Below the pieces are notes generated by a model. That model made no database searches. It was not told the DNA's origin and saw nothing but the letters and a program-made list of their open reading frames with translations. A DNA stretch of 64,000 bases from an uncultured Candidatus Saccharibacteria bacterium (GTDB lineage Bacteria; Patescibacteriota; CAZHWT01), in NCBI GenBank assembly GCA_964597145.1, contig CAZQWH010000002.1:177232-241231 (forward strand), given 5' to 3'. Every line of letters starts with the position of its first letter. The first letter of the stretch is position 1. The position numbers and the translations under genes are program-made. Below, in pieces: positions 1,135 through 41,312 of this stretch.

Positions 1135-3987
1135 TTATGAATCTGATTTACTTGGATTGTGCTGCCGGGGAGGTAAAATAATTTCCCCACTTGAGCCCGA
1201 AGTGGCTATGTGGCGAATCTGAGAATACCCTACTCCACCAGGCACTCCTTGGATCACTCGTGGTGTAACCCGATGGGGTCGGCTCACTTCATCCGATGGG
1301 GATGATGCCTCAGAATTCACCACCACCTTCGAAGCAGCTCCATCATGCTTGGTTTGGTTAAGATGACCATTCGACGCAATTCGACGCTCTGTCTTGGGCC
1401 TAATAACCGTCTCCGCTGGCGCCGACTCGGCTAGTTGATCATCTACTACTGCAGGCAAATCATTGGTAGCCTCTGCGGCAATTACTCCAGTATGGCTTGC
1501 ATTGCTTACGCCACTGCCAGATAATCGCTCTTGTTCCGCCTTTTGACGCAAAGTGGTAATAATTGTGCGAGCTTCATGGGGATTATAGTTAAATTTCTTA
1601 ATATTCCACTTCGCAATCTTTTCCTCCACTTCAGTTACAGGAGTAGCATAGACCCGACGAGAATGTTCAATAATTGCTTGGCGGTGCCCCTCGTGTCGGG
1701 CAATTGGCGGTAAGGTTGCGGCGCTAAACGGACGCGATTCCATTCCGTCAATCATCAGCTTGAGATAAATATGATGCTTCTCTAAGCTAACTAAATCTTC
1801 AGCTGCAAATACTGGTGCAAACTGGCTAGCCAAAGTCGCCGCATCATTTGGACCAACCGTAAACGCAATCGTACTGCCCACGTTACCAAATACTGCCTGT
1901 CGAACTGCCTCAGGCATTTGATCTATAAACTGGTGGGTAATAATTAGGTTAAGCCGATACTTACGAGCCTCAGACAATATTTCGGCAAATGAATCGGTCG
2001 CAAAGTTTTGGAACTCATCAGCATATACGTAAAAATCTCGCCGCTGGTCTTCCGGCATATTAACCCGTGTCATCGCTGCGCTCTTGAGCCGGGCAATAAT
2101 CATAGATCCCAGTAAAGCCGAGTTATCATTACCAATCTTACCCTTCGAAAGATTAACGAGCAAAATCTTGCCTTCGTTCATGATTTCATCAATCTTAATC
2201 GTCGACTTTGATTGACCCATGATATTTCTAATGGTGGATGTCTGCAGGAACTGGCCAACTTTATTTTGAATTGGCGACACAGCTTCGGTAATCAATCGGT
2301 CATTTGAGGACATCTTGGCATATTCGACCTGCCAAAAAGCCCGGAGTTGCTCATCCTCAAGCCCGCTAACCACAAACCTACGGTAGTCCTTGTCGAGCAA
2401 TAGTCGGTTCACTCCCAGCAATGTGCTGTTGGGAGTCTCAGCTAACGTCAGGAAGCAGTTACGGAGTAAATATTCTAATCGAGGCCCCCATGAGTCAAAG
2501 GTCCGCTTAAACACATCAACCATGGCTGAAGCAGTGAGATTTTTTTGTGTCGGATCGATAAGCTCCAGCATATTCAGACTCACCGGATTTGCCGCATCGG
2601 ATGGGTCAAATAGAACGACATCCTTAACCCTCTCTTCAGGTATATTATCCAGCAACTTTTCAATCATATCCCCGTGCGGATCCATCACGGCGACACCTTC
2701 GCCAGCCAAAATATCTTGTAGCACCATATTCTCCATCAAAGTCGACTTACCTGTACCAGTTTTTCCAATCATGTACATGTGCCGACGACGATCTGCTCGA
2801 TTAATCCCAAATTTTACTTCTCGATTACGGAAAGCCGTTTTAGCAAAAACGGTATCAACATCTTGCGGCAAATCTAAAGGCGGTTCGGCCTGCTTTGCTT
2901 TACTCCAAGCAATGGTTGGCGTTTCTACCGACAGATTAGGCAAATGATAAATGGAGGCTAACTCTTCTGCATTAAGCACAAAGTAGTTCTCATCATCGCC
3001 AGGGAAAATACGCCCTTGATACTCATGAAAAATTTCTTCAGCCCGGCGCTCTACCGGAGAAGGGCGAAAGCTATTGAGGTGAGTCATAGAAAACTGCTTC
3101 AACGAAGCCATAATCGAAGCCAGCGCTTGCTGTGAACCCTGTTCGGTTTGGCTAATCGAAACAATCCGCAAGGAGGTTTCAAACCCCAGTTTGGTCATTT
3201 TATTCTCAATTGCTTTCAGCTCTAGTTCCTGGCCAGAACTAAGCTTGGGTGGCCCTTCAGGCTTCTTCTCCTCAGCCGTCGATCCAACCGCCGTCGATAA
3301 AATCCACAATGGCATCGTAATCAACTCATTAACAATACTTTTGATCACCGAAGCAATAAAATTCTCTTGCGGCTCTAAAGACTTACCACTACGAATTTTT
3401 TCCACATACTCATAACCAGCTTCTTGCCAAATATCATCGAGAGGGCGCAGCAGAATTTGCATCCAGACTTGTTCACCCGGATTTAAACGCTCTACCGAAC
3501 CAGTAATAGCAGCCAAAGGATCGACTTGAAAATCAACGAAAGTTTTAATTGGGTAGAAATACTCTTTATTCAACGTAACTTCGGCCGCGGTCACGATCGC
3601 AGTGTTAGAACTAAAGTGGTGGGCGTAATCAATTTCCACCTCAGAAATTTGAGCCGTTGGATACTGCGCGTAAATTTGACCTTCAACAAAAGTCCGGAAG
3701 TAAGTTGGCAGATAAACGTAAAACCGAATCCCATCGTTAGTCGCCACAATTTCAAAACTAAGATGCTCTTGTAGTCCTGGAGTTTTAGATAATAAGCCAT
3801 GCAAAGAGGCGAACATCATTTCGGCGGATAACGGAGTTTTGTCGTTAAGTTTTGGAACCAGAATGGACAATAAAGTGCCCGTAGCAATCTCTTGCGGCTC
3901 TTCTACTTCTTCCACTCGTCGGCCAGCCACAGTCCAGGCAACCAGGATGGTTCCAGTGACAAATAAGGCAAGTACCAGCAATAACAT
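1135..3987 (-). CDS. Membrane-anchored P-loop ATPase of the FtsK/HerA/TraD-VirD4 (DUF87/AAA_10-like) type; possible type IV secretion or conjugative-transfer ATPase
   Basis: N-terminal hydrophobic segment (LLLVLALFVTGTILVAWTVAG). Walker A is MYMIGKTGTGKST and Walker-B-like is FYVYADEFQNF. 950 aa. The sub-family is inferred. Confidence 0.55.
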   Translation of the reverse strand: MLLLVLALFVTGTILVAWTVAGRRVEEVEEPQEIATGTLLSILVPKLNDKTPLSAEMMFASLHGLLSKTPGLQEHLSFEIVATNDGIRFYVYLPTYFRTFVEGQIYAQYPTAQISEVEIDYAHHFSSNTAIVTAAEVTLNKEYFYPIKTFVDFQVDPLAAITGSVERLNPGEQVWMQILLRPLDDIWQEAGYEYVEKIRSGKSLEPQENFIASVIKSIVNELITMPLWILSTAVGSTAEEKKPEGPPKLSSGQELELKAIENKMTKLGFETSLRIVSISQTEQGSQQALASIMASLKQFSMTHLNSFRPSPVERRAEEIFHEYQGRIFPGDDENYFVLNAEELASIYHLPNLSVETPTIAWSKAKQAEPPLDLPQDVDTVFAKTAFRNREVKFGINRADRRRHMYMIGKTGTGKSTLMENMVLQDILAGEGVAVMDPHGDMIEKLLDNIPEERVKDVVLFDPSDAANPVSLNMLELIDPTQKNLTASAMVDVFKRTFDSWGPRLEYLLRNCFLTLAETPNSTLLGVNRLLLDKDYRRFVVSGLEDEQLRAFWQVEYAKMSSNDRLITEAVSPIQNKVGQFLQTSTIRNIMGQSKSTIKIDEIMNEGKILLVNLSKGKIGNDNSALLGSMIIARLKSAAMTRVNMPEDQRRDFYVYADEFQNFATDSFAEILSEARKYRLNLIITHQFIDQMPEAVRQAVFGNVGSTIAFTVGPNDAATLASQFAPVFAAEDLVSLEKHHIYLKLMIDGMESRPFSAATLPPIARHEGHRQAIIEHSRRVYATPVTEVEEKIAKWNIKKFNYNPHEARTIITTLRQKAEQERLSGSGVSNASHTGVIAAEATNDLPAVVDDQLAESAPAETVIRPKTERRIASNGHLNQTKHDGAASKVVVNSEASSPSDEVSRPHRVTPRVIQGVPGGVGYSQIRHIATSGSSGEIILPPRQHNPSKSDS

Positions 3988-4086
3988 ACAAATCCTCTTC
4001 TCCTTGGATAGCGCGCAGGTAAAAGGCTAATTTTTTGGCCGTCTGGCGCCTACAAGTGACCTAATTTTATCATACAGATCAGGGTG

Positions 4087-4115
4087 TTGACAAATCATCA
4101 CCATCATACTATAAT
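4087..4115 (+). promoter_or_regulatory. Perfect consensus sigma70 promoter: TTGACA, 17 bp spacer, TATAAT
   Basis: TTGACA at 4087-4092 and TATAAT at 4110-4115 with an exact 17-nt spacer, read directly from the sequence. Confidence 0.6.
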
Positions 4116-4121
4116 GCCTTT

Positions 4122-4246
4122 GTCTCTCTCCTTTCTTCGTTCTGCGCGAGAGATGGATAGTGTTTATTTCTTGAGAAGTAGACAGTATCCATCTCTCACT
4201 GTAGAACAAGCAAAAAGGCCGCCCAAAATCAGGCGGCTTTTTTGTT
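4122..4246 (+). ncRNA. Candidate small RNA (~125 nt) between the consensus promoter and the intrinsic terminator; contains a 12-bp stem (GAGAGATGGATA / TATCCATCTCTC)
   Basis: Promoter and Rho-independent terminator bracket a hairpin-rich segment with no credible ORF. The only ORF here, 4084..4341, runs through the terminator. Confidence 0.4.
4211..4246. terminator. Rho-independent terminator, bidirectional (A-run, GCCGCC stem, GGCGGC, T6)
   Basis: GC stem flanked by A5 and T6. It serves the putative + strand sRNA and the minus-strand gene ending at 4429. Confidence 0.6.
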
Positions 4247-4428
4247 GCCTAAAACACTTCACACCGGCGCTATCTTACTATGTATATTGTAGAAGAATAA
4301 ATACAGCTCAAACAGGGTTGCCCATGGGCCACTCTGGTTAGCCAAATTGTACTTAGTTAGGTAATGATAAACTCATTAGCCATACATAACGGCAGGATAG
4401 TTACAGGCAAATGACTAGATCCAAGTTC

Positions 4429-5436
4429 CTATTTCCCCAGTCGCGATAAAGCGTCCGTCCCAATAACGAGCTCGACATCGGCCCGCTCTCTACCTGTCTG
4501 TGGCTGAATCGTAGTCGGCACGCCAAGAAACTGGTTAATCGACCGGGTTAAACTCGTGTTGGTTTCAGCCGTAATACTAGACCCAGTTTGGGCCGTGTCA
4601 GCCGGTTCAACAGCTATCACTTCCCCACCCATATTGGCCACAAAGCGGCTAGCTAAAGCGGCCAGCCCATCCACATGAGTCGCATTTTTAACCACAATAC
4701 TAGTCGCCTCATGTCGCACTGCATCAGAAATAAATAAATTCTGGACAATCGGATCGGTTACATCTGGCACAAGCTGAAGTTTGCCATCAGTGGTTTGCTT
4801 GGCTGTTGCTGGCAACTGCACAACAGTCGACTGGCTCACGGGTAAGTCTCTAAGCAACCAAGCCAGTTGAAGTAATTGCCATTCAGACAGGTTGGTCGCT
4901 ACCGACGACGCGGAATCCAACCACAAGGGCAACCCAATCGTAGTCGACCACCAGTCGGGTGGGGTGTGCAAGCTAAAACTCTCTACTAACGATGTTTTTC
5001 TATCCACCTCTGTCACGCGCGGTTGAATAATGTATCCAGTTACCGCTAACGCCAACTGCCCTTCAATAGCTAATTGCATTTCTTTGTAATAATGGCTTTC
5101 AAGATATTGCCCAACTTCAGTCACTCCATCAGAAAGATTAAGCGGAAGTCTAAGCGCGGCAACAGTTCGCTGTTCAAAGTCGGCCTTAAGGATAGTTAAC
5201 GAATCCAGCTGAGCCGCCTGATTGGACTGTTGGGCAATTACCAGTACTGGAGATTGGGTAGATGTGGCAATAAAATCATGGCCATTAACTGCGGGCAGAG
5301 GCTCAATCTTTTGCCAAAGCTGCACCATAGTCGCCCCTAGCCAGCCAACCGTCCCCACCACTACCCCAAACACTACCAGTTTGACTAATAATCCTCCACC
5401 CTTTCTTCTCCTAGCTTTTGATCGTCGACGACTCAT
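4429..5436 (-). CDS. Membrane-anchored envelope protein, tentatively a degenerate LytR-CpsA-Psr (LCP)-like protein
   Basis: Basic N-terminus (RRRSKARRRKGGG) plus one TM helix. The LCP-like spacing (VLVIAQQSN...LDSLTILKAD...LRLPLNL) lacks the canonical Arg residues. Overlaps tgt by 4 bp. Confidence 0.3.
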   Translation of the reverse strand: MSRRRSKARRRKGGGLLVKLVVFGVVVGTVGWLGATMVQLWQKIEPLPAVNGHDFIATSTQSPVLVIAQQSNQAAQLDSLTILKADFEQRTVAALRLPLNLSDGVTEVGQYLESHYYKEMQLAIEGQLALAVTGYIIQPRVTEVDRKTSLVESFSLHTPPDWWSTTIGLPLWLDSASSVATNLSEWQLLQLAWLLRDLPVSQSTVVQLPATAKQTTDGKLQLVPDVTDPIVQNLFISDAVRHEATSIVVKNATHVDGLAALASRFVANMGGEVIAVEPADTAQTGSSITAETNTSLTRSINQFLGVPTTIQPQTGRERADVELVIGTDALSRLGK

Positions 5437-39299: not shown

Positions 39300-39858
39300 C
39301 GCTCTACCTGTTATATAAATAGCCACCTGTCTCTGTCAAGTCTTTCTACGAATTCCCTTAGGCTAATGGTTACTACCCAACGTCAATGGCCCTTTCTCAG
39401 CCAACGCACGTTCTCATGGCATGCTGCAATCGTATACTTGGTAAATATAAGCAGATAGTAGATAAACCGAAGTAATTAACTAATGGATAACGAATTGTCT
39501 AGGTTGGATGTAGGCATGAAAAATCCCGGGTTAACGTACCGGGAGCTCAGTCGAGCCTACGCTGAGTTTCCTCAGGTGCAATTCCTCGGGCCTTATTTAC
39601 CTTCAGGGGTTGTGCTAGAGGTATCCGATGATCGAGTGGTAGATACGGCAGTTGACCCTCCACCATCAAACAACACTAGAATTAGCAAGAACCATCCCCA
39701 GCTAAATTCTATGGTTGGATGCAGGTAGACAAAAACTATGTACACGAGTGCCATACGTCTCTCTCCTTATGTACAGAATCGTTGCTTTAAAACCGCTCCA
39801 AGCCGCATTATATACCACTCAGACAACATTCATAGACTTGTCATAAAATCACATATAT

Positions 39859-39884
39859 TAATTATATAATATATTATATAATTA
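39859..39884. repeat. Copy 2 of the 26-bp perfect palindrome taattatataatatattatataatta
   Basis: Exact match. Confidence 0.9.
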
Positions 39885-40238
39885 ATTGTATTTAACTCAG
39901 TATTATACTATCAACATGAAGCACGAAGGGGTTTTAAGATCTATCCACCTTTCACCTCTTTGGGTCGGCGAAGCTCACCTAATTTTAGGCCAAAGACAGC
40001 GGATGACCAAAAATCCTACCCTCCCCCAATCAATCCAAGTTAAAGCCAGGCAGAAAAGGCAGATTACCCATGGTAGCTCCTGCCATTAGATAGGTTAGAT
40101 GAGCTCATATATAACAACAGGAATCAATAAACGAGAGTCTATAGAGCAAAAGCTGGTTCAAGGTTGCGTAGCGCCAGAGAAAAGAGTAAGCAGGGTGCGG
40201 CAGTTGCCACACCCTGCAGTTTTTTGGGTCTTTCTCTC

Positions 40239-41312
40239 CTATGGTTGAGCTAGAACCATGCCATACATGACTTGTCGAGCCCGCTGCGACCAATCTCCCG
40301 AGAAATTAACTCGCTTGCCGTTAATAGTCTGTCGAAGAGCCTCACTTGGGGTAACCTCTTCTCGAGCAAACATAAGGGCAGAGTCTTGGTCGGAGAAAAT
40401 GTATATCCCTCCAGACAAAGACAGTGTGACGCCCCTTGGCCGAGCAATTACCCAGTAGAAACTGGTCTGGCGTAACACTACTCTAATCACCGCTCGATGA
40501 GCAAAGTCTTGGACACCTCCCAAGCTCACGTTGAAACCGTTATGTTGCAGAGTCTGAACTAGCTCAGATTCATACTCTGGAGCTCGCTTCAATTGGTCGG
40601 CCTCAGGTAACGGTTGATCTCGGTTGGGTGGATCTTGATGAAAGACAATCTTTAAATCAGCTTTGATCTCGTCCCACCGCCATCCAACTACTCGTCGAGT
40701 GAATTGTTCCCACTCAACCTCAAGAATGTTCCGTAAAGCCCGCGGCTCCAATCGCTTACGCGCGCGCCGACCAACTGGCCAGGTAAAGGGAATCTCAATC
40801 GTACCATCGGTTACTACGTGACGGGCATAATCGGGGCCAAAAATACCTTTAACCAGTGGCAACTGCACGGTAGACTCCAGCTTGCTCTCCTCTCTCGGCT
40901 CCTCCACGGTAGATGAAGATGAAATCAGGGCGGACGCCGCCGCCGCGGTCGGTCGAGATGGCGGGTGTGCTGTAGTTGGATAAGCCCGATTAGCCAACCA
41001 TTGTCTAACCTGACGGTAGCTCAGTGTGTCAGTACCCACCAGAACTTGAGGGTAATAAACCTCTATACCAGTCATGGTCCGGGCTTTCAAGGGTATCGGC
41101 GCTACCTCATACCATGCCCCTTCCACTTCGAACCGCAAAACCTCAATCTGTTTGGATTCACCAATCTGCATGGCTGGCCCATGGACTATATCGGGCCAAA
41201 TTAACTTATAGCCCCCAGAGATCGTATCTTTGCCTGGTTGGCTAATGTAAAAGCCGTTGGGCCCACGCATGATAGTTCGAACCTGCCGCTTGACTTGACC
41301 AATCTTGGCCAT
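40239..41312 (-). CDS. Hypothetical protein (357 aa), Trp/Arg-rich, two domains joined by an Ala/Ser linker; a sampled 60-bp stretch is about 55% GC
   Basis: Long ORF with no motif recognised. Confidence 0.5.
   Translation of the reverse strand: MAKIGQVKRQVRTIMRGPNGFYISQPGKDTISGGYKLIWPDIVHGPAMQIGESKQIEVLRFEVEGAWYEVAPIPLKARTMTGIEVYYPQVLVGTDTLSYRQVRQWLANRAYPTTAHPPSRPTAAAASALISSSSTVEEPREESKLESTVQLPLVKGIFGPDYARHVVTDGTIEIPFTWPVGRRARKRLEPRALRNILEVEWEQFTRRVVGWRWDEIKADLKIVFHQDPPNRDQPLPEADQLKRAPEYESELVQTLQHNGFNVSLGGVQDFAHRAVIRVVLRQTSFYWVIARPRGVTLSLSGGIYIFSDQDSALMFAREEVTPSEALRQTINGKRVNFSGDWSQRARQVMYGMVLAQP

Follow-up and report, generated by a model that had tools for sequence, protein, structure and literature searches.

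The window that we analyzed, a stretch of 64 kb, contains a gap of 441 nt (positions 3988 to 4428) between two genes on the minus strand, in agreement with the gap of about 440 bp given in the sequence-only reading of this DNA. Both gene labels in that reading had to be revised. The gene at 1135..3987 (−), which had been called a membrane ATPase, encodes a 950-amino-acid VirD4/TraD-like protein with DUF8128, DUF87, and TrwB_AAD_bind domains, and we relabeled it a VirD4-like type IV coupling protein; its relatives in the databases are named [quoted passage not shown] The gene at 4429..5436 (−), which had been called LCP-like, encodes a product in which LytR_C is the only domain match. We refer to the two genes as the ATPase gene and the LytR_C gene.

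Within the gap, at 4087 to 4115 on the plus strand, we found the promoter that had been claimed, with TTGACA at 4087..4092, a 17-nt spacer, and TATAAT at 4110..4115 (12 of 12 consensus positions). This is the sole perfect TTGACA-17-TATAAT in the 64 kb when both strands are searched, and none arose in 100 dinucleotide-preserving shuffles of the window. The chance expectation of about 0.01 stated earlier agrees with simple arithmetic (128,000/4^12, or about 0.008). The predicted transcription start site, G4122, is the 7th nucleotide past the −10 hexamer.

The predicted RNA runs into a bidirectional intrinsic terminator at 4209..4246 (+), identified by terminator scan and by folding, which consists of an A-tract, a GC stem (4217-4223/4232-4238), the loop CAAAAUCA, and a U-tract. 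The parts named in the earlier reading are present: A5 at 4212-4216, GGCCGCC at 4217-4223, loop CAAAATCA, GGCGGC at 4232-4237, and T6 at 4238-4243. The claim of bidirectionality also held, with a minus-strand call by the terminator scan and a 15-bp helix followed by U6 in the plus-strand fold. We read the terminator as closing the predicted RNA on the plus strand and the LytR_C transcript on the minus strand. The nearest neighbors on both sides are minus-strand genes, and the predicted transcript enters no plus-strand gene. The unit of promoter, transcribed region, and terminator is single-copy in the window, and we rejected a dispersed repeat or MITE for this reason.

The predicted RNA begins with an unpaired CU-rich tail, GUCUCUCUCCUUUCUUC, at 4122..4138 (+), in which 4122-4136 are invariant among relatives. 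We propose this tail as a seed and use that name for its first 15 nt, GUCUCUCUCCUUUCU. Next comes a hairpin at 4139..4207 (+), found by folding and by covariation, which has 30 bp in the lineage of the window and is the variable module of the RNA. The 12-bp perfect stem reported earlier is present, with arms GAGAGATGGATA at 4148-4159 and TATCCATCTCTC at 4186-4197, and is nested within this longer hairpin. We found that the 125-nt plus-strand RNA folds at −65.8 kcal/mol (z = −10.75), that none of 200 shuffles folded as well, and that the minus strand folds more weakly (−52.2 kcal/mol). In all homologues that we folded, the minimum-energy structure leaves the 5′ tail unpaired. Each homologue has one dominant fold, and no competing or antiterminator pairing was evident.

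We found no sign that the segment encodes a protein. The plus-strand open reading frame (ORF) at 4084..4341 does run through the terminator, as had been noted. It is not the only ORF covering the segment, which is also overlapped by a 60-amino-acid ORF at 4027..4209 (−). Neither ORF has a Pfam match, and no ORF is conserved on either strand of the intergenic region across 10 lineages. We rejected plus-strand coding because the only AUG of the RNA (4152) has no Shine-Dalgarno sequence and is ACG in L019, L024, and L034. On the minus strand, neither a start codon nor a peptide is conserved downstream of AAAGGAG.

The segment also matches no described RNA family. A search of Rfam 15 with 3900-4500 of the window at E<=10 gave no family at its gathering threshold. 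The best sub-threshold matches, to Phe_leader (29.6 bits; gathering threshold, 55) and, on the minus strand, SSRC34 (28.6 bits; gathering threshold, 64), were discarded, since all such matches were driven by the terminator or the hairpin. At gathering thresholds, the whole window yielded only a tRNA, and the relatives L031, L034, L035, and L036 yielded no match. ARAGORN and Rfam placed no tRNA or tmRNA at the site. A housekeeping RNA (SRP/4.5S, 6S, tmRNA, or RNase P) was rejected on the same searches and on the dispensability of its sole internal hairpin, which is absent in L036 and is thus incompatible with the conserved catalytic or binding core of such RNAs. Two general features of trans-encoded base-pairing small RNAs (sRNAs) are present: at the sequence level, the unit has its own promoter and Rho-independent terminator, and it has a conserved accessible seed (15 nt, invariant and unpaired in every computed fold).

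We reached the contigs of relatives through homologues of the LytR_C protein (37 to 70% identity) and of the ATPase. The unit is present in nine further lineages (L019, L024, L025, L026, L031, L034, L035, L036, and L042), and in all ten lineages, which belong to one clade of the Patescibacteria (CPR), it lies between a LytR_C-like gene and a VirD4-like ATPase gene. It is kept in every relative that has this gene pair and a readable intergenic region. The earlier reading had named loss or divergence of the segment alongside retained flanking genes as the outcome that would speak against an sRNA; we saw the opposite. In L041 (1436-2375), a LytR_C relative (P0002, 69% identity) is followed by a different, oppositely oriented gene and neither the sRNA nor the ATPase, a gene order that indicates a local rearrangement in that lineage.

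The order of elements is the same throughout: promoter, 5 variable nucleotides, the invariant block TGTCTCTCTCCTTTCT, an optional hairpin, and a terminator with a conserved loop. The −35 hexamer is TTGACA in 10 of 10 lineages and the −10 hexamer TATAAT in 9 of 10; the spacer is 17 nt in 9 of 10 and 20 nt in L036. The promoter is thus a 12/12 match in 8 lineages, with L035 (TATAAG) and L036 (20-nt spacer) as the exceptions. The distance from the −10 hexamer to the invariant block TGTCTCTCTCC is exactly 5 nt in all 10. The middle hairpin has about 30 bp in five lineages and 7 to 11 bp of unrelated sequence in L026, L031, L035, and L042, and it is absent in L036, whose predicted RNA is only about 50 nt long.

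The unit is antiparallel to both neighbors in 8 of the 10 lineages. L031 and L036 carry the entire unit, promoter and terminator included, in the opposite orientation, codirectional with the LytR_C and ATPase genes. Promoter, seed, and terminator therefore stay linked on inversion, which argues that the unit is an autonomous gene. In L036, the minimal family member (2380-2465, minus strand, the same strand as both neighbors) consists of seed and terminator, and its promoter lies within the 3′-terminal codons of the LytR-like gene. Only 12 nt separate the end of its terminator from the codirectional ATPase ATG, which leaves no room for a separate promoter; because of this, the L036 ATPase probably depends on terminator read-through. 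At the other inverted locus, tandem heptamers, (AAACGTT)n and (GATTAGC)n, lie between the sRNA and ATPase genes (L031 5030-5580 and L032 1897-2412). Their copy number varies between the two samples, and the same interval holds an AT-rich palindrome, TATACGTATATGTATATGTATACGTATAC.

The unit is absent from L001-L003 and L043, whose ATPase is more distantly related and which lack LytR_C synteny. A scan of GTDB genomes with the ATPase protein gave relatives that were too distant (at most 56% identity), in which the upstream gene was a membrane-protein ORF and the element was missing. Names attached to relatives of the ATPase in reference genomes and protein databases include Saccharibacteria, Paceibacterota, Woykebacteria, CPR3, and "Patescibacteria group," which places the window in a Patescibacteria (CPR) genome. 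A metagenome scan with a pattern of the −10 hexamer plus seed returned two matches, the true member L036 and L037. We rejected L037 (969-994) as a chance match, the reverse complement of the Shine-Dalgarno/ATG junction of two overlapping ORFs (GGAAAGGAGAGAGACATG); the seed is there complementary to a real ribosome-binding site. A covariance-model match in L012 (21 bits) was due to unrelated GC hairpins, and a scan of viral contigs gave no match, in line with a unit that is not viral.

The RNA is conserved over a distance at which neutral sites are not. Compared with each relative, the window shows 20 to 37% identity at fourfold degenerate sites of the LytR_C and ATPase genes, a level that amounts to saturation. 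The RNA is 82 to 94% identical in the relatives with a long hairpin, and over its first 15 nt all 10 lineages agree completely (100%). The intergenic sequence from the terminator to the LytR_C stop codon is entirely different in length and sequence among relatives. Judged by these alignments, the RNA gene is under stronger purifying selection than its protein-coding neighbors.

Covariation, which the earlier reading had proposed as a check, is present in both stems. In a 9-sequence alignment, we found that 95.8% of cells pair, compared with 47 to 54% when the partners are slid. Changes on both sides occur in 13 pairs, and 0 of 500 shuffles matched any observed measure. RNAalifold independently recovered the two helices when given the five long forms, and the terminator helix when given all nine sequences. 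In the terminator stem, one GC pair (alignment columns 101/116) has become AU in 4 of the 9. On the question of strand, 32 G-U cells are valid solely on the plus strand, versus 4 A-C cells, and we therefore take the plus strand to be the one that folds. The 8-nt terminator loop, C(A/C)AAAUUA (4224-4231 in the window), is kept in all ten homologues even though its stem covaries; it could offer the RNA a second point of contact, either with a protein or through a kissing loop.

The conserved promoter, invariant 5′ end, covarying stems, and retention of the unit on inversion support the stand-alone sRNA gene that had been suggested. We conclude that 4087-4246 (+) is very likely an independent gene for a noncoding RNA of about 123 nt. 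By the searches above, this RNA represents a narrowly distributed family that matches no described RNA family, and its design is of a type already known.

The seed suggests what the RNA may do. The complement of GUCUCUCUCCUUUCU is AGAAAGGAGAGAGAC, which corresponds to a Shine-Dalgarno sequence with its spacer. Nine nucleotides of the seed, CUCCUUUCU, are shared with the standard 3′ tail of 16S rRNA of the Bacillus type (...CACCUCCUUUCU-3′). Over the start regions of the window, the energies with which the seed pairs correlate with those of a model anti-Shine-Dalgarno tail (r = 0.82). The RNA is a separate small transcript with the motif at its 5′ rather than its 3′ end, and the 5′ extension of the seed, GUCUCU, is not rRNA-like.

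A role as a global competitor for Shine-Dalgarno sequences is not supported. Over 51 start regions, which are the starts of the longest ORFs and of which some may be wrong, the mean pairing energy of the seed was −5.31 kcal/mol versus −5.25 kcal/mol for shuffled seeds. A Shine-Dalgarno core (GGAG, GAGG, or AGGA within 25 nt upstream) was found in just 15 of the 51, and Shine-Dalgarno usage in the window seems limited. The seed is not a general Shine-Dalgarno binder, and specific targets are therefore likelier.

The nearest such target would be the ATPase mRNA, whose Shine-Dalgarno region, AAGGAGAAGAGGA, lies at 3993..4005 (−). Pairing of the ATPase start region with nucleotides 2-12 of the sRNA has a predicted energy of −13.8 kcal/mol, the second best of the 51 start regions, and the same region scores −9.8 kcal/mol with the model anti-Shine-Dalgarno tail. 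A similar site is present in seven lineages (−13.2 to −14.6 kcal/mol; conserved form AAGGAGA(A)GAGG). In cofolds from several lineages, seed nucleotides 2-12 pair with positions −18 to −7 of the ATPase mRNA with a gain of −0.8 to −9.2 kcal/mol, lowest in L026 (−0.8 kcal/mol). The duplex is just 10 to 11 bp with a bulge. The ATPase start region of L036 has no tract complementary to the seed. ATPase homologues in lineages without the sRNA (L001-L003 and L043) have short leaders that lack the purine tract, and those of L001-L003 look nearly leaderless. The association between the sRNA and a purine-rich ATPase leader is suggestive and is confounded by phylogeny. Taken on these pairing predictions, the ATPase mRNA is a modest candidate for a target of the sRNA. 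A site in the 5′ coding region of LytR_C (5419-5390, −20.3 kcal/mol) was rejected as unconserved, since relatives gave −6.7 to −16.4 kcal/mol at shifting positions.

The layout of the RNA, in which a seed at +1 is followed by a spacer hairpin that can be lost and then by an intrinsic terminator, matches the design of trans-acting base-pairing sRNAs. We therefore favor, with moderate confidence, a trans-acting base-pairing sRNA whose 5′-terminal seed resembles an anti-Shine-Dalgarno sequence. For an sRNA that regulates just one or a few mRNAs, a 15-nt seed that stays invariant between lineages so diverged is unusual. This invariance amid drifting stems would better fit a fixed partner, protein or rRNA, than a few evolving mRNAs, and it raises the alternative that the RNA is a decoy: the CU-rich tail, perhaps together with the loop CAAAAUUA, would bind a conserved protein, for example ribosomal protein S1 or a KH/PTB-like pyrimidine binder, or mimic the 16S 3′ tail, and so titrate a factor. 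The terminator loop that is conserved while its stem covaries would suit such a partner, a consensus promoter implies the high copy number that titration needs, and no convincing conserved mRNA target emerged among those examined. However, each RNA carries one copy of the motif, whereas known sponges such as CsrB and RsmZ have many copies of theirs. Neither neighbor of the sRNA gene encodes a candidate partner protein, and base pairing through a 5′ seed in an RNA that ends in a terminator is a common bacterial design. We consider titration unlikely.

The position of the unit suggests a further alternative, in which it is a cis element of the ATPase gene, either an attenuator leader of the kind that the L036 arrangement suggests or a means of promoter occlusion, and the RNA has no function in trans. 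Wherever that flank could be read, the unit lies beside the start of the ATPase gene, and in L036 its terminator stops 12 nt short of the ATPase start codon. We also found a predicted divergent ATPase promoter at 4064..4093 (−), with TTGTCA, an 18-nt spacer, TAAAAT, and a TG at −15/−14 upstream of the −10 hexamer (10/12 match with TG). Its −35 hexamer overlaps that of the sRNA promoter by 5 bp, and both this promoter and the overlap of −35 hexamers recur in L019, L024, L025, L026, L034, and L035. Competition between promoters that overlap in this way is possible. In L042 and L031, however, the two promoters lie about 110 to 400 nt apart without overlap. Because L031, L036, and L042 are arranged differently, promoter competition is not the conserved function. 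Occlusion would also require neither an invariant transcribed sequence nor a covarying hairpin. As for attenuation, the RNA is transcribed away from the ATPase in 8 of the 10 lineages and there cannot be its leader; the two are codirectional solely in L036 and L031, and no alternative antiterminator pairing is evident. A purely cis-acting element is therefore improbable.

The ATPase mRNA has a 5′ untranslated region of about 70 nt (3988-4063, minus strand). Close to the predicted +1, it contains a block, CCACTTGTGGGCGC, that is conserved in L019, L024, L025, L026, and L034 and is a short inverted repeat (CCAC..GTGG). This repeat may be an operator.

The best site in trans is a perfect 12-nt complement, AAGGAGAGAGAC, of sRNA nucleotides 1-12 at 39768..39757 (−). 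It covers the Shine-Dalgarno sequence, 2 nt ahead of the start codon (AUG), of a 53-amino-acid ORF (39593..39754, minus strand) whose N-terminal half is hydrophobic. About 940 bp around this ORF (39300-40240) contain no long ORFs. Such a site is what a type I antitoxin would have if its seed masked the ribosome-binding site of the mRNA for a small hydrophobic toxin, for which this ORF could serve as an example. However, the ORF lies 35 kb away, and a search of a database of 5.8 billion proteins gave no homologue and no shared words. Nor is any small ORF conserved beside the sRNA on either strand in the 10 lineages, and we regard an antitoxin as very improbable. That the segment has no RNA function at all, being a promoter-like sequence and the shared LytR_C terminator with an incidental or repeat-derived palindrome between them, is hardly credible: the dispensability of the hairpin in L036 would allow it, but the conservation despite saturated neutral sites, the compensatory stem changes, the single copy of a unit that is no dispersed repeat, and the linkage of promoter, seed, and terminator even when inverted all speak against it.

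We compared the RNA with sRNAs of known mechanism. Enterobacterial sRNAs of the RybB, OmrA/B, and MicC type have a 5′-end seed, a variable body, and a Rho-independent terminator, and they repress at or near the ribosome-binding site. The present RNA shares this modular layout, with a single-stranded seed at the very 5′ end, but has no sequence or Rfam similarity to them. They use Hfq and regulated promoters (sigma-E and OmpR), whereas the present RNA has a perfect constitutive-type consensus, belongs to a Patescibacterium, and carries a CU-tract seed that resembles an anti-Shine-Dalgarno sequence.

The streptococcal csRNAs (CcnA-E), which depend on CiaR, are transcribed from the strongest promoters of that regulon (PMC3091779). 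Each contains an unpaired stretch with complementarity to both the Shine-Dalgarno sequence and the start codon, through which it is proposed to prevent the initiation of translation (PMC3091779). This stretch lies between two stem-loops, and its anti-AUG is CAU in 53 of 61 csRNAs (PMC3091779). In contrast, the seed of the present RNA is 5′ terminal and contains no CAU, CAC, or CAA. We rejected membership in the csRNAs on its misplaced seed, its plain sigma-70 promoter without the CiaR direct repeat, and the absence of an Rfam match. Firmicutes sRNAs of the RsaE/RoxS and RNAIII type use unpaired pyrimidine-rich motifs to pair with the G-rich Shine-Dalgarno regions of several mRNAs. Those motifs (CCCC/UCCC) lie in hairpin loops and in multiple copies, whereas the present RNA has one linear 15-nt tail at its 5′ end. 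Neither RsaE nor any other such family gave an Rfam match.

For the trans-acting base-pairing sRNA that we favor, we propose the following mechanism. Transcription from the consensus sigma-70 promoter would start at G4122, and the intrinsic terminator would set the RNA end near 4243. The product would have three modules: an unpaired, invariant CU-rich 5′ tail of 15 to 17 nt that acts as the seed, a dispensable spacer hairpin of variable length, and a terminator hairpin with a conserved loop. The seed would pair with purine-rich translation-initiation regions of the form AGAAAGGAGAGAGAC and so block ribosome binding on a few specific mRNAs. According to this model, the RNA probably silences mRNAs by covering their ribosome-binding sites; the targets would be the ATPase mRNA and others with AGGAGAGAGAC-like sites. 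The most economical candidate is the mRNA of the adjacent VirD4-like ATPase, whose Shine-Dalgarno region would pair with seed nucleotides 2-12. In the lineage of the window, where the −35 region is shared, the very strong sRNA promoter and the ATPase promoter may in addition compete for RNA polymerase. Only tentatively do we extend this to a first riboregulator of the Patescibacteria, in which a constitutively and very highly transcribed RNA, with an invariant 5′ end that copies the ribosomal anti-Shine-Dalgarno tail, would gate synthesis of the orphan VirD4-like coupling ATPase present throughout this radiation, through masking of its ribosome-binding site and, in most lineages, through the shared −35 region.

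The Patescibacteria, which are ultra-small and little studied, account for much of bacterial diversity, and their tiny genomes have few recognizable regulators. In a full-text literature search, we found no described sRNA regulator for this group. To our knowledge, this would be the first well-supported sRNA candidate in CPR bacteria. The anti-Shine-Dalgarno-like seed is unusual but introduces no new principle, and the 50-nt form in L036, made up of seed and terminator, would be a very compact natural sRNA scaffold. The neighboring ATPase belongs to the abundant type IV coupling protein (VirD4-like) homologues of the Patescibacteria. A survey counted 5,713 VirD4 homologues among 2,918 Patescibacteria genomes, found most of them to be encoded apart from virB4, and raised the possibility that they have been exapted for other functions (PMC12102498). 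The sRNA gene offers a testable entry point into posttranscriptional control in the Patescibacteria, and gating of the ATPase, if true, would tie such control to machinery that these epibionts may use with their hosts.
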